A stretch of DNA of 64,000 nucleotides from Candidatus Methylomirabilota bacterium (GTDB taxonomy: Bacteria; Methylomirabilota; Methylomirabilia; Rokubacteriales; CSP1-6), in contig DASYUQ010000077.1 in NCBI GenBank assembly GCA_036001065.1, positions 12,299 to 76,298 on the forward strand, in the 5' to 3' direction. Position 1 is the stretch's first letter, and each line of letters starts with the position of its first letter. Of the stretch, positions 1,163-35,216 are shown in pieces. The translations under genes were made by a program, and so were the position numbers. Under the pieces are notes generated by a model. That model did not search any database, had not been told where the DNA came from, and saw only the letters and a list, made by a program, of their open reading frames with translations.

Positions 1163-3040
1163 CTATCCAAGGAAATACCGCCTCGGATCGAAGAGCCGGA
1201 TGAGCCGCAGCTCGTCCGGCGTCGGGGGATCGAAGCGCCGCAGGGCCGGGGCGACCTTCAGCTCCCAGCCGCACGCCTCCCGCGCAGCCCGGACGGCTTC
1301 CGCCTCGGGCGGCCCCGCCAGGACGCCCGTCAGGATCAGCTCGGAGCTCTCGTCGGGCTTCTCGTACACGCCCCGGTCCGACACGACGGTCGTGACGCGC
1401 GTGCCCGGCGCCGTGATGTACGGCGCCTTGTCGACGAAGCGCTCCCGGCTCTGGGCCAGCGTCACGACGACCTCCCGCGCCGACGAGGCGATGTCGTTGG
1501 CTCCGCCCGAGCCCGTGATGTACAGGGTCCCCGGCACGATGGTCGAGTTGATGTTGCCGTGCTTGTCGATCTGCCCCGCCGCCAGCGAGCCGAGGCAGCG
1601 GTTCTCGCTCCCGCCCATGAAGATGCCCATAACGTGGAAGATGTCGGTGAGCATCTTGGACGACGGGAAGTTGCGGAACGAGAAGACGAACGGCTCGGCC
1701 GGGCGCGGCAGATAGCCGACCATCCCCGTCTCGGCCATCAGCTCCACGTCGACGCCGGCGGCCTTCAGCTCGTAGGCGCTGAGCCAGGCGGCCAGGTTCG
1801 AGTTGCCCACGCCGGCCAGGAAGGCGCGATAGCCCCGCGCCCTCACCTTCTCGCCGAGCAGGCGCGCCGCGGCCACCACCATCATCTCCGCTGCGGTGAA
1901 GCCGCCGTCGGCGGGAATGGCGGGCGCGAGCATCTCCAGCTCCCAGACCCAGGCGTCGGTGTGGGCGCGGCCCTTGACCTCCATCAGCCGCTGGTAGCCC
2001 AGCCGGGCGACGTAGGCCCCCTGGTCCGGCACCTCCAGCATCCACTCCTTGATCCAGGCCTCCGCCGTCTCGCGCTTCCGGAAGGCGCGGCGCAGCGTGA
2101 GGATGAAGTCGAGGTCCTCCGCGTATCCCTCCAGCTCGGCGACGTTCATGCCGTACATCCCGGCGGGATGGGCCCCGAACGGCGCCTCCACCACGGCCGC
2201 GACGTACTGTCCCGGCAGTCGCACCAACGGGGCGTGGCGGCGGATGAACTCGGTCGAGACGACCTTCTCGACGCTGACGATGGCGCCCCCGCGGGCGGCC
2301 ATCGCCGCGTAGAAGTTCTCGTTGAGGGGCGCGGCGGCGAGGACGTTGCCGGCGCGGTCGGCGGCCCAGGCGTGAAACAGCGCCACATCCGGCTTGAGCG
2401 AGCGCACGAACCCGACCCTTCGAGCGCCGGCTCCGCCGGCACAACCCTCCGATGGGGAGGTTCGGAGGGGGTCGTGAGGCCCTCTCTGACTAGGGATCTC
2501 GGAGGGGGCCGTAACGTCCGCCCCCTCCGAAAAAAACGGGTCGGGGGCGGCGAGGAAATCGCCATCGCGCGCGTTGTCCTCCTCCATCGAGGAGCCGAGC
2601 AGCGAGCGCGTGGGCATGAAGGGCACGCCCAGCGCGCCCCCGATCAGCCTGAGCGGCATCGTCAGCATCGACCAGTTCTGGACGGCCACCTGGCCGCCGA
2701 GCACGGCGCGGCCGACCAGCGGCTGGGGCGTCGGATAAGGATAGCCCTCGCCGATGAAGGTCGTGACGAGGCGCTCGACGAGGCCGCCCACGACGAACGC
2801 CGTCCAGGGCGAGCCGAACCCGGTCATCGCCAGCGTCCAGCCCGGCCTCCGGCCCCACCACTGGCGGATCACCTCTCGCACCAGCGCGTTCGGGCGGCCG
2901 TGGGCGGCGCCCAGGTAGATGGTCTGGCGCGGCGCGATCAGGCGCCGCACCGCCTCCTCCAGGGTCGTCACCTTGTCCGGCCCTTCGGTGGGCGGCAGCG
3001 CGAGGCGTCGCCCGATCAGCTCCGCGTAGTCCGAGCGCAT
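1163..3040 (-). CDS. Family I CoA-transferase, fused alpha-like + beta-like subunits (GctAB/AtoDA-type), with an about 39-aa in-frame repeat-derived insertion
   Basis: 625-aa ORF. The C-terminal half carries the beta-subunit catalytic-glutamate motif (GGSENRCLGSLAAGQIDKHGNINSTIV). The N-terminal half resembles the alpha subunit. Residues about 168-207 (PFFSEGADVTAPSEIPSQRGPHDPLRTSPSEGCAGGAGARRVG) are encoded by repeat copy A. Confidence 0.65.
   Translation of the reverse strand: MRSDYAELIGRRLALPPTEGPDKVTTLEEAVRRLIAPRQTIYLGAAHGRPNALVREVIRQWWGRRPGWTLAMTGFGSPWTAFVVGGLVERLVTTFIGEGYPYPTPQPLVGRAVLGGQVAVQNWSMLTMPLRLIGGALGVPFMPTRSLLGSSMEEDNARDGDFLAAPDPFFSEGADVTAPSEIPSQRGPHDPLRTSPSEGCAGGAGARRVGFVRSLKPDVALFHAWAADRAGNVLAAAPLNENFYAAMAARGGAIVSVEKVVSTEFIRRHAPLVRLPGQYVAAVVEAPFGAHPAGMYGMNVAELEGYAEDLDFILTLRRAFRKRETAEAWIKEWMLEVPDQGAYVARLGYQRLMEVKGRAHTDAWVWELEMLAPAIPADGGFTAAEMMVVAAARLLGEKVRARGYRAFLAGVGNSNLAAWLSAYELKAAGVDVELMAETGMVGYLPRPAEPFVFSFRNFPSSKMLTDIFHVMGIFMGGSENRCLGSLAAGQIDKHGNINSTIVPGTLYITGSGGANDIASSAREVVVTLAQSRERFVDKAPYITAPGTRVTTVVSDRGVYEKPDESSELILTGVLAGPPEAEAVRAAREACGWELKVAPALRRFDPPTPDELRLIRLFDPRRYFLG
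2420..2537. repeat. GC-rich palindromic repeat element, copy A (forward orientation), inside the CoA-transferase CDS in-frame
   Basis: Sequence: ttcgagcgccggctccgccggc...gatggggaggttcggagggggtcgtgaggccctctctgactagggatctcggagggggccgtaacgtccgccccctccgaaaaaaa. It is near-identical to copy B (32414-32520) and shares 5' and 3' modules with copies C, D, E and F. Internal hairpins: GCCGGCtccGCCGGC and TTCGGAGGGGG...CCCCCTCCGAA. Confidence 0.65.
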
Positions 3041-9517: not shown

Positions 9518-10231
9518 GTGCGATATAATACGCCCGGGAGGAAGCGGATGAGTGCCGCGCCGAAGAACGATCCCGCCGCCGTCGAGGTGGAGGTCCGTGA
9601 AAAGATCCACCTCGAGATCCTCAAGCGGACGGGTGCCTACCACGCCAACGACCACGTGCTGCTGCCCTCGGGGCAGCACACCAGCGAGTACATCGAGAAG
9701 ACGCTGGTGACGACGGAGCCATCTTTCACCGAAGGGCTCGGCGCCGTCATCGCCAAGCACTTCGCCCAGTGGCCCGTCGATGCCGTGCTCTCCACTGGTC
9801 CGGGCGCCCTCATCCTCTCCCACTGCGTGGCGCGGGCGCACCCTTCACGCCCGATTGTCGTTTATGGCACGAAGGGACTGTCCGGTGGCAAGCGGCGGGT
9901 CACGCTGCCCGTCGAGTTCCAGCGCCTGATCCGGGAGGGCGCGCGCGTCCTGCTGATCGAAGACCTCGTCAGTACCGGCACCACGCTCGACCTCCTGATC
10001 AACCTTGTCGAGCAGTTGGGCGCCGAGGTGGTGGGGATCGGGTGCCTTTGGCGCCGCACGTCTGTGCAACTGAACGGCAAGCCAGTCTTCAGTCTGGTGA
10101 GCAGGGACTTTCCGACCTACGATCCGTCAGATTGTCCTCTATGTAAAAGGGGAATACCACTGAACGAAGAGTTCGTCCGGAGGCGGCACCTGCGGCGTCC
10201 CTCGACCGTACAGGAGCCTAAGACCCCGTAG
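9518..10231 (+). CDS. Phosphoribosyltransferase, orotate-PRTase (PyrE)-like, with C-terminal CxxC tail
   Basis: PRPP-binding motif RVLLIEDLVSTGTTL, and LPSGQHTSEYIEK resembles the PyrE hood region. C-terminal DCPLCKRG. A possible later start is at 9548 (MSAAPKND). Confidence 0.5.
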   Translation: MRYNTPGRKRMSAAPKNDPAAVEVEVREKIHLEILKRTGAYHANDHVLLPSGQHTSEYIEKTLVTTEPSFTEGLGAVIAKHFAQWPVDAVLSTGPGALILSHCVARAHPSRPIVVYGTKGLSGGKRRVTLPVEFQRLIREGARVLLIEDLVSTGTTLDLLINLVEQLGAEVVGIGCLWRRTSVQLNGKPVFSLVSRDFPTYDPSDCPLCKRGIPLNEEFVRRRHLRRPSTVQEPKTP

Positions 10232-10284
10232 TTCCGGCCTTTCAAGCTGTCCGGCCAAGCCCCGCCTCGTCTGTCACCAGGTCT

Positions 10285-10300
10285 TGGCACCCCTCTTGCG
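10285..10300 (+). promoter_or_regulatory. Sigma-54 (RpoN) -24/-12 promoter
   Basis: TGGCACccctcTTGCG matches TGGCAC-N5-TTGCW exactly. It lies 47 nt upstream of the ATG at 10347. Confidence 0.5.
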
Positions 10301-10346
10301 TAGTCACCGTGAGGCGAAACTTCTGGCATCGCCCGAGAGGTGCCTA

Positions 10347-11099
10347 ATGTATAGGCAGGCAATCCCGCTCCTCGGTCTCGTTCTCTCGCTCGCGGTCACG
10401 AGCCTCGCGGACGCCGAGCCGGTGACGGTCCTGTTTCCGGAGGGCGTGACGCGGGCCTTCCCCATCCTACGCTCCATGGACAACGAAAAGCTCGCCCAGG
10501 GTGACCTCAGCCAGGTCGTGCGGGGTGACAAGGTTTACAGCCGCCTGGTGTTCCGCTTCAAGGACGGTTCGATCTACGACGAGAGCGTCGTCTTCACCCA
10601 GCGCGAAGTATTCACCCTCCTGAGCTACCGCATTGTGCAGAAGGGCCCCTCTTTCCCGGAGACGCTGGAGGCGGCCATCGACCGGGACACCGGACGCTAC
10701 CAGGTCCGCTACCGCGCGGACGAGGACAGCCCCGAAGAGGTCCTCACCGGAAAGTTCGCGCTCCCCGACGACGCCTACAACGGGATGCTCTTCCTGATCG
10801 TGAAGAACCTGCCCGCGCGGGCCGGGGAGACGGTTTCGATAGTGGCGTTCACGCCGAAGCCGCGGGCCGTGAAGATGCAGCTCCTGCCGGTGGCCGAAGA
10901 TCGCATGCTGGTCAGCGACTCGCCGATGCAGGCCACCCGCTATCACATCCGGCCGCAGCTCGGCCTGTTCGCCTCGCTCCTGGTGGCCGACATCCCCGAT
11001 CTCCGCATGTGGATTCTTCCCGGGGAGGCTCCGGCGTTCCTGCGCGCGGAGGGTCCGCTCTACTTCATGGGGCCGGTCTGGAGGATCGACCCCTACTAG
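10347..11099 (+). CDS. Secreted hypothetical protein (signal peptide, no lipobox)
   Basis: Start at the second Met of the track ORF (MYRQAIPLLGLVLSLAVTSLADA|EP). There is no recognisable catalytic motif. The local GC is lower than surrounding DNA. Confidence 0.5.
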   Translation: MYRQAIPLLGLVLSLAVTSLADAEPVTVLFPEGVTRAFPILRSMDNEKLAQGDLSQVVRGDKVYSRLVFRFKDGSIYDESVVFTQREVFTLLSYRIVQKGPSFPETLEAAIDRDTGRYQVRYRADEDSPEEVLTGKFALPDDAYNGMLFLIVKNLPARAGETVSIVAFTPKPRAVKMQLLPVAEDRMLVSDSPMQATRYHIRPQLGLFASLLVADIPDLRMWILPGEAPAFLRAEGPLYFMGPVWRIDPY

Positions 11100-11196
11100 A
11101 TTCCTCGGAGGGGGGCTTCGCCCCCCTTCCGAAACCTCCCCCCAGGATCCATTGCGCGGGCTAAGCCCGCGCTCGAGCCGGCCGCCCCCAGAAACT
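11100..11196. repeat. GC-rich palindromic repeat element, diverged copy F (reverse orientation), between convergent genes
   Basis: cggaggggggcttcgccccccttccgaaacctccccccaggatccattgcgcgggctaagcccgcgctcgag parallels copies D and E (cggagggggcctcggcggccccctccgaggcctcccccagga..gatggcgccggcggagccggcgctcgaa). The terminal hairpin is kept by compensatory changes (GCGCGGGCtaaGCCCGCGC versus GCGCCGGCggaGCCGGCGC). Confidence 0.5.
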
Positions 11197-18822: not shown

Positions 18823-18896
18823 TCGAAGGGGGCCTCGGCGGCCCCCTCCGAGGCCTCCCCCAGGATCGATGGCGCCGGCAAAGCCGACGCTCGAAC
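18823..18896. repeat. GC-rich palindromic repeat element, copy D (reverse orientation), immediately 5' of mobA
   Basis: cgaagggggcctcggcggccccctccgaggcctcccccaggatcgatggcgccggcaaagccgacgctcgaa is about 90% identical to copy E over about 70 bp. Confidence 0.6.
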
Positions 18897-22234: not shown

Positions 22235-23920
22235 TCAGTGGCGGAAGTGACGGATGCCGGTGAAGACCATCGCCACCCCGCGCTCGTCGGCCGCCGCGAT
22301 GACCTCCTGATCCCGGAGCGAGCCGCCCGGCTGGATGACGGCCGTGACCCCGGCCTGAGCCACGACGTCGAGACCGTCGCGGAACGGGAAGAACGCGTCG
22401 GAGGCGCAGACGCTGCCTTCGGTGCCGAGCCCGGCCTCGCGCGCCCGCATGACGGCCAGGCGCGCGGAGTCCAGGCGATTCATCTGCCCGGCCCCGACGC
22501 CGACCACCTGATCGCCTGTGGTCAGCACGATGGCGTTCGATTTGACGTGCTTGGCCACCCGCCAGGCGAAGCCGAGCGCGGCCATCTCGTCGGGAGTGGG
22601 CGCGCGCCGGGTGACCGTCTTGAGGGTCTTCTCATCGAGGTCGACCGCGTCCGCCGCCTGCACCAGCAGACCACCGAGCACGCTCCGGTACTCGACGAGC
22701 CGCGGGAGCCGTTCGCACGGTACCTGGAGCACACGGCACTTCTTCTTCGTCCGCCTGAGCTCCTCCAGCGCCTCGGGAACGAAGGCGGGCGCGAAGAGGA
22801 TCTCGACGAAGATGCCGGCGAGCTCCCGGACGACGGCCGGGTCGAAGGCGCGGTTGACGCCGACGATCCCGCCGTAGATCGATACCGGATCCGACGCTTT
22901 CGCCTTGGCCATGGCGGCGCCGGCGGTGGCGGCGACCGCGGCACCGCACGGGTTGGTGTGCTTGACGACGACGGCCGCCGGCTCGGCGAACTCGAGCAAC
23001 AGCCCCAGGGCCGCCGAGAGGTCGAGCAGATTGTTGTAACCGAGCTCGGGCCCGTGCAGCTGCCGCATGGCGCCGAGCCCGAAGGGGAACCCGCCGAGGA
23101 GGCGGTAGAACGCCGCCGCCTGGTGGGGGTTCTCGCCGTACCTCAGACCGAGCGCCCGCTCGGCCTCGAGCCGCAGCCGCTCCGGAAACTGCTCCGTTCG
23201 AGCGCCGGCTTCGCCGGCGCAATCCGTCCTGGGGGAGGTCTCGGAGGGGACCGTCGCGCCCTCCGGGCGCGCCTGTGGAGTCGCCCCCTCCGACCGGGAT
23301 GGGAGGCGAAGCCCCCCTCCGAGGGAGGCGGCCCCCTCCGAAGAAAAATGAGCGGCGATCGCCGCGTCGTATTCGGCCGTCCGCCGGAACGCTTGCTGGG
23401 CCAGACGAGCGCGCGTCTCGTCGCTAAGCGCGCCGCCGCTGGCCCGCAGCTCTCCCAGGACCTCCGCGTACTGCGAGGGATCGGTGACGACGGCCACGCT
23501 CGCGTGGTTCTTGGCGGCGGCGCGAATCATGGCCGGACCCCCGATGTCGATCTGCTCGATCGCCTCGGCGCGCGTGACGCCGGGCCGCGCCACCGTGGCC
23601 TCGAACGGGTAGAGCGCCACGACGACGAGGTCGATCGGCGGGATCCCGTGCTGCTCGAGCGCGGCCGCATGCTCGGGGGAGTCCCGGCGGGCCAGGATGC
23701 CTCCGTGAATCTTGGGATGGAGCGTCTTGACACGACCGTCGAGCATCTCGGGAAACCCGGTGACGTCGGCGACCTCGCGCACCGGCACCCCCGAGTCCCG
23801 GAGCAGCCGAGCCGTCCCGCCCGTCGAGAGGAGCTCCACCCCCAGCTCCCGGAGGGCTCTGGCCAGCTCGACCACACCGGTCTTGTCGTGAACGCTCACG
23901 AGCGCACGCCGGACCTTCAT
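22235..23920 (-). CDS. purH: Bifunctional AICAR transformylase / IMP cyclohydrolase, with repeat-derived about 50-aa insertion in the interdomain linker
   Basis: MGS-like N-domain (VRRALVSVHDKTG...) and AICARFT C-domain. The linker segment SSEGAASLGGGLRLPSRSEGATPQARPEGATVPSETSPRTDCAGEAGARTEQ is encoded by repeat copy C. Confidence 0.85.
   Translation of the reverse strand: MKVRRALVSVHDKTGVVELARALRELGVELLSTGGTARLLRDSGVPVREVADVTGFPEMLDGRVKTLHPKIHGGILARRDSPEHAAALEQHGIPPIDLVVVALYPFEATVARPGVTRAEAIEQIDIGGPAMIRAAAKNHASVAVVTDPSQYAEVLGELRASGGALSDETRARLAQQAFRRTAEYDAAIAAHFSSEGAASLGGGLRLPSRSEGATPQARPEGATVPSETSPRTDCAGEAGARTEQFPERLRLEAERALGLRYGENPHQAAAFYRLLGGFPFGLGAMRQLHGPELGYNNLLDLSAALGLLLEFAEPAAVVVKHTNPCGAAVAATAGAAMAKAKASDPVSIYGGIVGVNRAFDPAVVRELAGIFVEILFAPAFVPEALEELRRTKKKCRVLQVPCERLPRLVEYRSVLGGLLVQAADAVDLDEKTLKTVTRRAPTPDEMAALGFAWRVAKHVKSNAIVLTTGDQVVGVGAGQMNRLDSARLAVMRAREAGLGTEGSVCASDAFFPFRDGLDVVAQAGVTAVIQPGGSLRDQEVIAAADERGVAMVFTGIRHFRH
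23199..23349. repeat. GC-rich palindromic repeat element, long copy C (forward orientation), in-frame inside purH
   Basis: The 5' module ttcgagcgccggcttcgccggcgcaatccgtcctgggggaggtctcggagggga matches the reverse complement of copy E's 3' end (A and C share the core TTCGAGCGCCGGCTYCGCCGGC and GGGGAGG-YCGGAGGGG). The 3' module ggccccctccgaagaaaaa matches copies A and B. Confidence 0.6.
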
Positions 23921-26877: not shown

Positions 26878-26952
26878 AGTCGGAGGGGGCCTCGGCGGCC
26901 CCCTCCGAGGCCTCCCCCAGGAAGGGATGGCGCCGGCGGAGCCGGCGCTCGA
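26878..26952. repeat. GC-rich palindromic repeat element, copy E (reverse orientation), in the purF-purM intergenic spacer
   Basis: agtcggagggggcctcggcggccccctccgaggcctcccccaggaagggatggcgccggcggagccggcgctcgaa. Its 3' 22 nt are the exact reverse complement of copy A's 5' 22 nt (ttcgagcgccggctccgccggc). Confidence 0.6.
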
Positions 26953-27000
26953 AACAGCGAGCAGTGGCCGGAGTAAGCTGGCGCCATTCGCCAACAACCG

Positions 27001-31414: not shown

Positions 31415-31648
31415 TCACTCGATCGTGTACTCCTCGAGCAGGGGGTTGGCGAGGAGCCGGCGGCACATCTCGTCGGCGCGGGCGCGGGCCTGCGCGGCCG
31501 TGGGAGCCTCCAGCTCGACCTCGATCACCTTGCCCACCCGCAGGTCGGCCACGTCGGTGAAGCCGAGGCCCATCAACGCGCGCTTGACGGCCGCGCCCTG
31601 AACGTCGAGGATGCCCGGCTTGAGCCGGACGAGCACGCGCACTTTCAT
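31415..31648 (-). CDS. purS: Phosphoribosylformylglycinamidine synthase subunit PurS
   Basis: Start ATG 31648 (MKVRVLVRLKPGILDVQG...), about 77 aa. ATGA overlap with the purC stop. Confidence 0.75.
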   Translation of the reverse strand: MKVRVLVRLKPGILDVQGAAVKRALMGLGFTDVADLRVGKVIEVELEAPTAAQARARADEMCRRLLANPLLEEYTIE

Positions 31649-32388
31649 GTCCGCGGCGCGCCGCCTTCGACGAGACGCCGGAACACTTCCTGGTAGGCGT
31701 CCTCCACGCCCCCCAGATCCTGGCGGAAGCGGTCCTTGTCCAGCTTGGCGCGGGTCCGGGCGTCCCACAGGCGGCAGGTGTCGGGTGAGATTTCGTCGCC
31801 CAGGTAGAGCCGGCCGCGGGCACGCCCGAACTCGAGCTTGAAGTCGACCAGCAGGAGCCCCCGGCGCGCCATGTGCGGCCGGAGTACGCGATTGATCCGG
31901 AGGGCCATCCGCCGGAGCCAGGCCAGCTCCCGGGGTGTGGCCAGCCCCAGCAGCCGCACGTGGTCGTCGGTGATCATGGGATCACCGAGCGGATCCGACT
32001 TGTAGTAGAGCTCCACGATCGGCTGCTTGATCGGAGTCCCTTCCTCGAACCCGGTGCGCTTGGCCAGGCTGCCGGCCACGATGTTGCGGACGATCGTCTC
32101 GATGCGGATGATCTCGAGCCGCCGGCAGAGCATCTCGCGGTCGGAGAGGGTGGCCAGATAGTGGGTGGGCACCCCCGCCCGCTCGAGCCGCTGGAACAGC
32201 GCCGCCGACATCCGGTTGTTCACCACGCCCTTGCCGACGATGGTCCCGCGCTTGAGCGCGTTGAAGGCGGTGGCGTCGTCCTTGAAGTACTGGATGATCA
32301 GATCCGGCCGGCTGGTCGCGTAGACGATCTTCGCCTTGCCTTCGTAGAGCTTCTCGCCCTGCTCGACCTCCGGAATCGCCCTCTTCAT
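31645..32388 (-). CDS. purC: Phosphoribosylaminoimidazole-succinocarboxamide synthase
   Basis: Start ATG 32388 (MKRAIPEVEQGEKLYEGKAKIVY...). Confidence 0.85.
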   Translation of the reverse strand: MKRAIPEVEQGEKLYEGKAKIVYATSRPDLIIQYFKDDATAFNALKRGTIVGKGVVNNRMSAALFQRLERAGVPTHYLATLSDREMLCRRLEIIRIETIVRNIVAGSLAKRTGFEEGTPIKQPIVELYYKSDPLGDPMITDDHVRLLGLATPRELAWLRRMALRINRVLRPHMARRGLLLVDFKLEFGRARGRLYLGDEISPDTCRLWDARTRAKLDKDRFRQDLGGVEDAYQEVFRRLVEGGAPRT

Positions 32389-32413
32389 CGCTCTACCCTC
32401 TATTTCGCGCTTT

Positions 32414-32520
32414 TCGAGCGGCGGCTTTGCCGCCGCGATCCTATGGGGTGGTTCGGAGGGGGCCGCGAGGCCCCCTCTGACTAGGGATCCCGGAGGGGGC
32501 GGCGCCCCCCTCCGACAAAA
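32414..32520. repeat. GC-rich palindromic repeat element, copy B (forward orientation), overlapping the purB 3' end
   Basis: ttcgagcggcggctttgccgccgcgatcctatggggtggttcggagggggccgcgaggccccctctgactagggatcccggagggggcggcgcccccctccgacaaaa. It is near-identical to copy A. The 5' hairpin has compensatory changes (GCGGCGGCtttGCCGCCGC versus GCCGGCtccGCCGGC). Confidence 0.65.
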
Positions 32521-33808
32521 GTCCGGCCCGCCTGAAGATCGCGTCGACATGACGGAGGTACCACGCCGGATCGAAGCACGCCTTCAGCTCGTCCGGCCCG
32601 ACTCGCTCGGTGATCGCCGGGTCGGCGGCGAGAAGCTCCAGGAATGACCGCCGCTCCCGCCAGGCCTGCATGGCGTTGCGCTGCACGATCTCGTAGGCCG
32701 CCTGGCGCGCCAGCCCCGTCTCGGTGAGCTTGAGCAGCACCCGCTGGGAGTAGACGAGGCCGTAGCTCCGCTCGAGGTTCTCCGCCATGCGAGCCGGGTC
32801 GACCTCGAGGCCCTCGACGACGAACGTCGTCAGATCGAGCAGGTAGTCGACGAGGATGGTCGAGTCCGGCAGGATGACGCGCTCGACGGAGGAGTGGCTG
32901 ATGTCGCGCTCGTGCCACAGCGCGACATTCTCGAGCGCGGCCAGCGCGTTGGTCCTGACGAGCCGCGCCAGCCCGCAGATGCGCTCGGTCAGCTCGGGGT
33001 TGCGCTTGTGGGGCATGGCGCTGGAGCCCTTCTGGCCCTCGGCGAAGGGCTCCTGGGCCTCCAGGATCTCCGTCCGCTGGAGGCCCCGGATCTCCAGGGC
33101 GATCTTCTCGAGGGAGGCGGCGGCGACGGCGAGCCCCGTAGAGAACTCCGCGTGGCGGTCGCGCTGGACGATCTGGGTGGAGACGGCCGCCGGCTCCAGG
33201 CCCAGCTCCCGGCAGACCTCCTCCTCGATCTCGGGCTCGACGTGGGCGAAGTTGCCGACGGCTCCCGACAGCTTGCCCACGGCGACGGCCGCCCGCGCCC
33301 GGCGGAGGCGCTCGAGGTTCCGCCCGGCCTCCGTGTACCACACCGCCACCTTCAGGCCGAACGTCGTCGGCTCGGCGTGAACGCCGTGAGTCCGGCCGAC
33401 GATTAGGGTGTCCTTGTGGCGGCGGGCCAGCTCGCCGAGTGCCGCGCGCAACCGCTCCTGGCCGGCGATGAGGAGGTCGGCGGCCTCGCGAAGCTGGAGG
33501 GCCAGCGCCGTGTCCCACACGTCGTTGGTGGTGAGCCCGATGTGGACGAAGCGGGAGTCCGCGCCCAGCTGCTCCTCGAGGCTGGTGAGGAGCGCGATCA
33601 TCTCGTGCTTGACCCGCCGCTGGATCTCGAGGATCCGGTCGACGTCGACGCGAGCCTTGGCCCGGACGCGGGCCAAGGCCTCGACCGGGATGCGGCCGCG
33701 GCGGGCATAGGCCTCGCACACGGCCAGCTCCACGCGCAGCCAGGTGGCGTACTTGGACTCCTCGCTCCAGATTCGCCCCATGGCCGGACGCGTGTACCGC
33801 TCGATCAC
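32441..33808 (-). CDS. purB: Adenylosuccinate lyase, with C-terminal about 25 aa and stop codon supplied by a repeat element
   Basis: Canonical PurB through ...WYLRHVDAIFRRAGL. It then reads LSEGGAAPSGIPSQRGPRGPLRTTP* from repeat copy B. The same repeat-encoded peptide frame is seen in the CoA-transferase (SEIPSQRGPHDPLRTSP). Confidence 0.85.
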   Translation of the reverse strand: MIERYTRPAMGRIWSEESKYATWLRVELAVCEAYARRGRIPVEALARVRAKARVDVDRILEIQRRVKHEMIALLTSLEEQLGADSRFVHIGLTTNDVWDTALALQLREAADLLIAGQERLRAALGELARRHKDTLIVGRTHGVHAEPTTFGLKVAVWYTEAGRNLERLRRARAAVAVGKLSGAVGNFAHVEPEIEEEVCRELGLEPAAVSTQIVQRDRHAEFSTGLAVAAASLEKIALEIRGLQRTEILEAQEPFAEGQKGSSAMPHKRNPELTERICGLARLVRTNALAALENVALWHERDISHSSVERVILPDSTILVDYLLDLTTFVVEGLEVDPARMAENLERSYGLVYSQRVLLKLTETGLARQAAYEIVQRNAMQAWRERRSFLELLAADPAITERVGPDELKACFDPAWYLRHVDAIFRRAGLLSEGGAAPSGIPSQRGPRGPLRTTP

Positions 33809-33955
33809 GCCCTCACCTTAAAGGAAAACCCGGGCAAGGGAAAGCGGCAAGCCGGGCCGGACAACGAGCCAGACGAGGCCCGAAGGAGGAGCCCACCGGA
33901 GCGTACGTGTTTGTACGTGAGGATGGGCGACGACTGAGAACGAAGTCTGGCGACG

Positions 33956-35216
33956 TTATCCGGCCCGGCTCAGTTCGCGGGGGAGATTGCGCCGGTCCAG
34001 CGGGCCGTAGGTCGTCAGCGCCAGCCGGTCCTCGTCCAGGAGCTGGCTGACGAGCACCTGGACCTCCTCGTGGCGGACGGCGTCGATGGCTGCGAGCATG
34101 GCGGCCATCGTGAGGAACGAGCCGAAGTGCAGCTCGTGCTTGGCCAGCCGGTTCATCCGGCTCGAGGTGGACTCCAGCGACAGCATGAGGCTGCCCTTGA
34201 GGTGATCCTTGGCGCGCCGCAGCTCGTCCTCCCGCACGCCGTGCTTCTTGAGATCCCGGATCTCCTTGAGGATCGACTTGAGCACCTTCGAGAAGTTGGG
34301 CGCGTCGGTCGCCGCGTAGATGTAGAGGGTGCCCGTGTCGCGGAAGGCCTGGGCGCCGGAGTGGATGGAGTAGACCAGCCCCTGACGTTCGCGGACCTCC
34401 TGGAAGAGGCGGGAGGACATGCTGCCGCCGATGATGTCGTTGAGGAGGAAGAGCGCGTACCGCTCGGGTGCGGAGTGGCTGAGCCCGGGGAAGCCCATCA
34501 CCACGTGGACCTGCTCCAGCTCCTTCTGGACGATGTTCACACCCGGCTTCATCACCGGCACCGTGTTCGGGCGCTCGATCGGCTGGCGGCGGAAACCGTC
34601 GAAGCCGGCGCCGAACAGTTCCAGCACTCGGTCGTACGTGACATTGCCGGCCACGGCGATGATGATCTTGGGGGGCGCGTAGTGCTCCACGAAGTGCGTG
34701 TGGATGGCGTCCCGCCCGTAGCCGATGACGGCCTCCCGGGTGCCCAGGATCGGCCGCCCCAGCGGGTGCCCTTCCCAGACGTGCGCGGCGAAAAGATCGT
34801 GGATGAGGTCGTCGGGCGTGTCCTCGACCATCTTGATCTCCTGCAGCACCACGGACTTCTCCCGCTCCAGCTCCTCGGCGTCGAAGAGCGGGTGCAGGAG
34901 GATGTCGGTGAGCAGGTCCACGGCCAGGGGTAGATGCTCGTCGAGGACCTGCACGTAGAAGCAGGTGTGCTCCTTCGTGGTGAAGGCGTCCATCTGCCCG
35001 CCCACGGAATCCATGGTGCGGGCGATCATCTCGGCGCTGCGCGTCGCCGTGCCCTTGAAGACCAGGTGCTCGATGAGGTGGGACATGCCGGCCCGGCCCT
35101 CGGGCTCGTGGCGGGAGCCGGTCTCCACCCAGACGCCGACGGCCACCGACCGGACGTGGGACATCCGCTCGGTGACGACGCGGATGCCGTTCGGCAGCAG
35201 GCCCTTCCGGTATTCT

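Follow-up and report, generated by a model that had tools for sequence, protein, structure and literature searches.

A dispersed hairpin repeat at the purB-purC junction of a Rokubacterial genome appears to give PurB a tolerated C-terminal tail

In the stretch of Rokubacterial DNA analysed here (64 kb, hereafter the window), adenylosuccinate lyase (PurB) ends in a tail that is encoded by one copy of a dispersed hairpin repeat. We consider it likely, with a probability of about 0.8, that this copy (copy B) is a member of a non-coding, selfish repeat family of the REP/MITE type, that it inserted at the purB-purC junction and that the tail is a tolerated, disordered by-product. According to this reading, a basic unit with the layout TTCGA-GCGCCGGC hairpin-AATCC..TCCTGGGGGAGG-TCGGAGGGGGCC..GGCCCCCTCCGA hairpin would spread as a selfish, non-autonomous element, and its insertion at purB-purC would have pushed the native end of purB downstream and out of frame. 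Translation of purB would then carry on through two element hairpins, or 24 codons, and would halt at a TAG made by a copy-specific change in the spacer ahead of the third hairpin. The family matters more than the single PurB copy, as one repeat feeds protein sequence into at least three housekeeping enzymes within one 64-kb window of an uncultured, abundant soil phylum. Searches of the literature turned up no account of a repeat of this kind from Rokubacteria.

The purB reading frame encodes a protein that ends in ...HVDAIFRRAGLLSEGGAAPSGIPSQRGPRGPLRTTP directly before the stop codon (Table 1). No exact database match was found for this form; the shorter form with the later start (P0001) is present in the databases. 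The closest proteins are from Rokubacteria (Methylomirabilota). Among the 120 closest homologues, 65 terminate in ...FKRIGLL, about 20 more have other ...GLL endings, and most are 431 aa long, or 422 aa by a later start call. The Pfam profile ADSL_C is matched in full (residues 350-428, profile positions 1-79 of 79), and Bacillus subtilis PurB (PDB 1f1o, 431 aa) aligns over 1-430 onto residues 1-430 of the window protein. The complete domain, the alignment to residue 430 and the homologues that end in GLL together indicate that PurB is complete to L431, the last residue of ...FRRAGLL, and that the extension comprises residues 432-455. PurB thus keeps an intact native C-terminus, and its stop codon alone is displaced. 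An earlier note on this DNA had described PurB as canonical up to ...HVDAIFRRAGL and then continued by 25 aa from the repeat, which would replace the native C-terminus and stop. The repeat-encoded tail was confirmed, but it is one residue shorter, with L431 part of the native end, and the C-terminus proved to be retained rather than replaced. The reading frame has been cut off from its native stop, and the ancestral end of purB now lies farther downstream in another frame. The comparison with the C-termini of relatives, which the same note had proposed, bears out that the window protein is longer, and its claim that PurB ends at a TAG inside the element holds, the codon lying between hairpins B and A.

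Table 1 Features of the purB-purC junction and the six repeat copies in the window.
Feature	Position	Strand	Remarks
Copy A, in frame in CoA-transferase ORF 1163..3040 (-)	2419..2530	+	Residues ~171-206
Copy D, between convergent genes	11105..11177	-	TAG stop of ORF 10164..11099 (+) ~5 nt from hairpin-B end
Copy E, between tsaC-like and mobA-like genes	18823..18895	-	ATG of mobA-like gene abuts element end (read from the sequence)
Copy C, in frame in purH (22235..23920 -)	23197..23341	+	Linker between two domains
Copy F, between purF and purM	26880..26953	-	Site empty in L084, L087 and L004
purC (SAICAR synthetase)	31645..32388	-	ATG at 32388, 52 nt downstream of purB end
purC Shine-Dalgarno GAGGG	32396..32400	-	Within GAGGGTAGAGCGATGA, displaced remnant of ancestral purB end and purC start
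Copy B, three-hairpin subfamily	32413..32521	+ (model orientation)	Read in reverse by purB
Hairpin A, GCGGCGGC-TTT-GCCGCCGC	32418..32436	.	Untranslated, between purB stop and purC ribosome-binding site
TAG stop in current use by purB	32441..32443	-	Copy-B-specific variant CCCCATAGGATC in spacer between hairpins B and A
purB ORF, present form	32441..33808	-	455 aa; other ATG at codon 10 gives 446-aa call P0001
PurB tail, 24 codons, element-encoded	32444..32515	-	SEGGAAPSGIPSQRGPRGPLRTTP; predicted disordered
Hairpin B, TCGGAGGGGGCC-GCGA-GGCCCCCTCTGA	32453..32480	.	Translated QRGPRGPLR
CTAG, usual terminal motif of the family	32481..32484	.	Internal in copy B, out of frame for purB
Hairpin C, extra G-rich, common to copy A	32491..32514	.	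Translated SEGGAAPS; first bases TCGGAGGG = purC Shine-Dalgarno region of relatives
Native PurB, residues 1-431	32516..33808	-	Ends ...HVDAIFRRAGLL; canonical C-terminus complete

On the purB strand, copy B reads TTTTG-TCGGAGGGGGGCGCCGCCCCCTCCG (hairpin C), GGATCCCTAG, TCAGAGGGGGCCTCGCGGCCCCCTCCGA (hairpin B), ACCACCCCATAGGATC, GCGGCGGCAAAGCCGCCGC (hairpin A) and TCGAA. Over 62 nt, copy B matches positions 2448-2509 of copy A at 90% identity (repeat family D12). The TCGGAGGG on its purB side could be the native Shine-Dalgarno sequence or part of the element, which leaves the boundary uncertain by about 8 nt.

Runs of G and repeated hairpins are error-prone in both sequencing and assembly, and a frameshift or mis-join at the GC-rich repeat might produce a false PurB extension. 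The window has close counterparts in two independent JGI metagenome assemblies: L081 matches it at 99.98% identity over 21 kb, and L082 at 99.94% over 9.8 kb. Both share its exact purB junction and tail, and the differences, at 4 and 6 positions, lie elsewhere. A tail that is identical in two further assemblies is not the product of a sequencing frameshift, such as one near 32520 that would restore a purB stop upstream of the element, which the earlier note had named as its refutation. Nor does the native position offer a stop in any frame: past L431, the first stop in one of the two other frames is the element's own CTAG, and in the other our reading of the sequence gives none before purC. 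Moreover, two further purB loci, L083 and L209, carry related yet different filled sites. An artefact is hence extremely improbable.

We then compared the junction among relatives. In a scan of genome contigs, four of the six Rokubacterial purB loci among the matches listed had purS, not purC, after purB, and these were not used for the junction. At empty sites, purB ends directly after ...GLL or 4-6 codons further on. L087 contains TTATGAcggagccaaacacccgATG and reads ...CTG TTA TGA cggagccaaacacccg ATG, and L084 reads ...CTC CTC TAA followed by a 35-nt spacer. In L088, CTT TTG TCG GAG GGA AAG GGA TGA encodes LLSEGKG and stop, with an ATGA overlap with the purC ATG and GGAGGG as the purC Shine-Dalgarno sequence. 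L210 has ATC CCG GAG GGG AAG CGA TGA (LIPEGKR and stop), again with an ATGA overlap with purC, and L211 has GCG CCG GAG GGT GCC TGA (LLAPEGA and stop), with the purC ATG two bases past the stop. In these last three loci the Shine-Dalgarno sequence of purC lies inside the short PurB tail.

Two filled sites allow a comparison with the window. L083, whose PurB core is 95.8% identical to that of the window, carries a two-hairpin element that is 36 nt shorter and has no hairpin B; its PurB reads through the whole element to a TAG just ahead of the purC ribosome-binding site and so gains a 27-aa tail, PEGGFRPPSGTSPRGSRQQSRRSKRAK, unlike that of the window. The ancestral end GAGGGTAGAGCGATGA persists out of frame, downstream of the element, in both the window and L083. 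L209 holds a canonical unit of about 69 nt as a clean in-frame insertion, CCC/TCGGAG...GCTCGA/GAGGGAGAGCGATGA, with GAG GGA GAG CGA TGA directly after the element; the insertion leaves both the native stop and the ATGA overlap in place, and alignment with L210 and L088 shows no target duplication. In a neighbour-joining tree of the PurB core, the window and L083 stand beside the empty L087 and L211, and L209 falls in another clade beside the empty P0071 and L088. Because these filled sites lie in separate clades next to empty ones, the purB-purC site appears, from this single-protein tree, to have been occupied at least twice. As a side observation, purB and purC are translationally coupled in L088, L210 and L209, with an ATGA overlap and the purC Shine-Dalgarno sequence in the last purB codons (...SEGKG and ...PEGKR before the stop in the empty sites). 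The window lineage would have lost this coupling through the insertion, and purC translation could change there as a result.

According to a second alternative, selection maintains the 24-aa tail because it has a function in PurB, such as that of a degron, localisation signal or interaction peptide. The same reading frame does recur in many proteins, and the tail is kept short by a copy-specific stop. These points are outweighed by the sister protein of L083, in which the tail differs in both length and sequence, and by the relatives, most of which have no tail at all. The peptide is, besides, a plain translation of a DNA palindrome, and it is rich in G, P, S and R and predicted to be disordered. 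An AlphaFold2 model built with 25 homologues places the final PurB helix at 421-427 and gives residues 435-455 as coil without secondary structure (pLDDT <50). We regard a selected function as very unlikely. The tail, presumably made as protein, is more probably a tolerated disordered appendage, and the effect on PurB is probably small, with an intact enzyme carrying 24 floppy residues. The tryptic peptide AGLLSEGGAAPSGIPSQR bridges the native and the element-encoded parts.

The stop codon of PurB is peculiar to copy B. Its spacer variant CCCCATAGGATC gives the TAG; in copy A, although nearly identical, the spacer is CCCCATCGGAGG and has to remain open inside the CoA-transferase frame, and the other window copies have CCCCCAGGA. 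The frame used by purB contains no stop in 76 of 82 units, and most other tails derived from the element reach their stop codon 0-18 nt past its end. The recurrent (C)TAG at the gene-proximal end of the element is out of frame in PurB (ATC CCT AGT). The earlier suggestion that the element can donate a stop codon is accordingly true of copy B in the literal sense but does not describe a family trait.

The repeat has a basic unit of about 75 nt, TTCGA-GCGCCGGC-TTCG-GCCGGCGC-AATCC..TCCTGGGGGAGG..TCGGAGGGGGCC-loop-GGCCCCCTCCGA, to which some copies add G-rich hairpins in tandem; in its sequence, the family is modular. A profile built from the window copies recovers six copies in the window (Table 1). 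Copy F has CTAGCG on both flanks and, as a separate observation, an extra stretch of about 50 nt that separates the purF stop from hairpin A. Several metagenome loci (L114, L119, L190, L191, L200 and others) carry an extra conserved (G)AATGTTCCGC just ahead of hairpin A, upstream of TTCGAGCG. Among the Rokubacterial purB loci compared, the family occurs in L083, L004 and L005, as well as in L081 and L082, which represent the window's own population, and is absent from the other nine. A metagenome scan with the hairpin-A pattern found it on at least 120 contigs with a mean GC content of 0.69, mostly from soil by sample name. In the combined set of 139 copies (window, L083, L004, L005 and metagenome loci L089-L208), most copies are intergenic, and an open reading frame reads into the element in about 22 of about 250 copy-by-orientation tests. 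Filled and empty orthologous sites were seen at purB-purC, at purF-purM and in the purH linker.

Of the six copies in the window, three form part of reading frames, as the PurB tail, an insertion in a CoA-transferase and the PurH linker, and all three are entered from the G-rich end with hairpin A in the same phase. A fused CoA-transferase of 625 aa carries copy A in frame within its CoA_trans domain, and the peptides of copies A and B in the same orientation and frame are SEIPSQRGPHDPLRTSP and SGIPSQRGPRGPLRTTP, which upholds the earlier observation that the PurB tail shares its frame with the CoA-transferase insertion. Most of 120 CoA-transferase homologues are 593 aa long, and about 30 have insertions or remnants at one loop. 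Many of these insertions clearly stem from the element and mostly share its frame in copy A, as does FHSEGASTAPSDASPRRGGAGKAGAR; short remnants such as AGEAGARS also occur, and one homologue, P0138, has an insertion in the opposite orientation. In PurH, copy C forms the linker between the MGS/IMPCH and AICARFT domains (...SSEGAASLGGGLRLPSRSEGATPQARPEGATVPSETSPRTDCAGEAGART...). The same linker holds a basic unit in L005 and is short and plain in L004, L006 and L002; by eye, that of L084 seems to contain a different hairpin sequence. Metagenome reading frames also gain tails from the element, including SEGASTAPSEASPGNRVAPAKPALE (L167), SEGASTAPSETSPRT and stop (L117) and QSEGASAAPTEASPESETAPAKPALE (L140), and so does L204.

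To quantify this bias in frame, we searched the window, together with 123 Rokubacterial loci, for reading frames with at least 300 nt of stop-free upstream sequence and coding-type GC3. Of 11 that read through a G-rich hairpin, 10 use the frame TCG GAG GGG (SEG[A/G]...APSE), the eleventh being the second hairpin of the PurB tail. The favoured frame yields a peptide rich in Ser, Glu, Gly, Ala and Pro, and one alternative frame yields RRGPRRPPP. The earlier note had also proposed that the family carries a preferred readable frame. The preference stands, but readability is not its reason, since each of the six frames is stop-free in 93-98% of full-length units. The same figures dispose of the idea that the unit has only one open frame. 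A terminal TAG that closes the other frames was considered as a sufficient cause and rejected: the CTA offsets of 0-7 nt close the three frames in 10, 19 and 10 of 39 cases. We infer that the preference stems from selection on the encoded peptide, and the mechanism of insertion might also account for it.

The placement of the copies relative to genes is strongly oriented. With the G-rich (hairpin-B) end facing the 3' end of a gene, a stop codon lies 0-5 nt away in 32 of 126 evaluable copies, and none is found in the opposite orientation; in 16 further copies of the 126, the stop in this same orientation lies inside or beyond the element start. Of 35 such element-adjacent stops, 26 are TAG (background frequency 34%, p = 1.6e-6), and CTAG itself is about 9-fold depleted in the copy-bearing loci (251 observed, 2159 expected). 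In 39 of 76 copies, CTA(G) occurs 0-7 nt past the hairpin-B end, and no copy has it at 8-24 nt. It often serves as the stop of the neighbouring gene, at variable spacing from the hairpin, and also turns up away from gene ends, for instance at copy F and, internally, within copies A and B. The motif may be part of the element or its target site. An IS630-type model, with a CTAG target and TA duplication, was set aside, as the hairpin-A end has no CTA enrichment (12 of 131 copies). In E. coli, REPs less than about 15 nt from a stop codon reportedly lower expression through ribosome stalling.

We infer from the sequences that the family spread by transposition. The element ends, TTCGAG... and ...CTCCGA, have only an imperfect inverted similarity of 5-6 nt and do not amount to terminal inverted repeats. 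Non-autonomous (palindrome-associated) elements derived from IS200/IS605 have subterminal hairpins, no terminal inverted repeats and no target duplication. The Rokubacterial element resembles them in its asymmetric ends and in a short conserved motif at one end, so that a mechanism is suggested by comparison. Hairpins just inside both ends, the lack of terminal inverted repeats, the clean site of L209 with no duplication and the one-end motif together favour mobilisation by a single-strand HUH/Y1 enzyme (IS200/IS605 or RAYT-like) rather than movement as a DDE-type MITE. A tblastn search of about 1.1 Mb of loci with approximate IS200 TnpA and E. coli RAYT queries, a weak test, returned no match to a transposase.

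It is also conceivable that the element acts mainly at the RNA level, through protection of the upstream mRNA from 3' exonucleases, attenuation of transcription, or uncoupling and tuning of purB/purC translation, the overlap with coding sequence being incidental. E. coli REPs have effects of this kind, and terminator-like repeats with a comparable role include SPRITE and the mycobacterial TRIT. The RNA of copy B folds into three strong hairpins (-73.3 kcal/mol), but the z-score against shuffles of the same GC-rich sequence is just -2.3. Pairing is preserved by compensatory change: the variable pair of hairpin A, two positions left free in the search pattern, is complementary in 120 of 121 hits, which indicates that hairpin A is maintained, and hairpin B has the compensated variants GGGGGCC/GGCCCCC and GGGGGGC/GCCCCCC. 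Such conservation, however, would be equally expected of a DNA hairpin recognised by a transposase. The orientation-specific place right after stop codons, described above, likewise speaks for a role in RNA, and so does the presence of two copies at pur operon junctions (purB-purC and purF-purM) that in relatives are overlapping or 7 nt long; a third, copy C, lies within purH. Yet the element is absent at purB-purC and purF-purM in most relatives, and the number of hairpins differs between the orthologous copies of the window and L083. A U-tract is also lacking; the T-run precedes the hairpin in the purB sense, which does not make an intrinsic terminator (GC-rich hairpin and U-tract), and no promoter-like or terminator-like site was found near the purB-purC junction, with the terminator scan covering 31500-34000. 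Rfam gave nothing at the gathering threshold across the whole window and only chance-level hits locally (E <1), and a tRNA/tmRNA scan found no genes. A main role in RNA thus seems unlikely, although it would be compatible with a selfish repeat.

Element-derived C-terminal extensions and in-frame insertions are already known in other bacteria, according to PMC5896051 and PMC10969869. The QMITE1 and QMITE2 copies of Coxiella burnetii reach into functional genes at the 3' end, where they provide C-terminal residues, the stop codon or both, and EnhC of the Dugway strain gains 33 aa from QMITE2 with a stop just downstream (PMC5896051). The PurB tail is an event of this kind. QMITEs have terminal inverted and direct repeats, whereas the Rokubacterial element has only the imperfect end similarity given above and no duplication at L209. 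It shares with MITEs that it is small, non-coding and multi-copy and differs in presence or absence between relatives.

Like REP/BIME sequences mobilised by RAYTs (PMC2817692), the Rokubacterial copies are GC-rich imperfect palindromes, numerous and dispersed, and lie mostly just downstream of genes; some Pseudomonas REPs resemble the element itself (GTGGGAGGGGGCTTGCCCCCGAT) (PMC2817692). The family thus shares with REPs a short GC-rich palindrome kept as a hairpin and many, mainly extragenic, copies. A TAG-containing head stands beside the palindrome in about half of the copies; the REP head is an abutting GTAG and the Rokubacterial one a (C)TAG at a variable distance of 0-7 nt. REPs also occur in inverted doublets (REPIN/BIME), whereas the Rokubacterial unit is a fixed two-hairpin composite in one order. 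By this comparison, REPs with their RAYTs are the closest structural analogue.

Rickettsia palindromic elements (RPEs) are found as in-frame insertions in numerous genes (Ogata et al. 2000, summarised in PMC10969869). On that summary, RPEs and the Rokubacterial element are alike as short palindromic repeats that are found both between genes and in frame in unrelated housekeeping genes, with a tolerated recurrent peptide. The hosts of the Rokubacterial insertions are PurB (tail), PurH (linker) and the CoA-transferase (loop), and in-frame insertion with the recurrent peptide extends to the unrelated genes at L204, L117, L140 and L167. RPEs belong to an AT-rich, obligate intracellular genus and the first described were about 150 bp long, whereas the Rokubacterial unit, of about 75 nt, resides in a free-living soil phylum of about 70% GC and is mostly intergenic, close against stop codons. 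The likeness appears to be one of behaviour only, as membership by sequence is implausible on grounds of composition and host.

A broader proposal would make the family a Rokubacteria-wide counterpart of RPEs, in free-living soil bacteria whose genomes are large, that inserts beside TAG/CTAG stops and at TCGGAGGG, which resembles a Shine-Dalgarno sequence, without target duplication, repeatedly remodels C-termini, inter-domain linkers and surface loops in one tolerated frame (SEGASTAPSEASPR...) and perhaps fuses genes and breaks operon coupling, all by way of a single-strand transposase. We put this forward as tentative, and doubtful in its full extent. The element recurs at the same sites in different lineages, and its orientation-specific placement right after TAG stops offers a handle on the insertion mechanism. 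It may serve as a second independent system on how selfish palindromes become tolerated in proteins. The annotation of Rokubacterial metagenome-assembled genomes is affected as well, through odd C-termini, apparent gene fusions and low-complexity loops.

Three cases at gene starts or between coding sequences deserve mention. Copy E ends in ...GGCCCCCTTCGA directly ahead of ATGAAAATCACGGGC, the likely start of the mobA-like gene, and on inspection of the sequence there is no obvious Shine-Dalgarno sequence outside the hairpin, which suggests that the element can reshape translation-initiation regions. At purF-purM in L005 (12565-12690), a truncated copy is followed by no start codon before the conserved ...LTYRDAGV, and PurM appears to start upstream (ATGATGGGC...), with the element as an N-terminal extension in the orientation opposite to that of the C-terminal cases. 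In L204, the C-terminus of a [2Fe-2S] CoxS-like protein (CRCTGYRKIVEAI) and a possible CoxL-like start are linked in frame, as judged by eye, by a fragment of the element, ASPHDPIAPAKPALE (699-742), and this arrangement may represent an element-mediated gene fusion.
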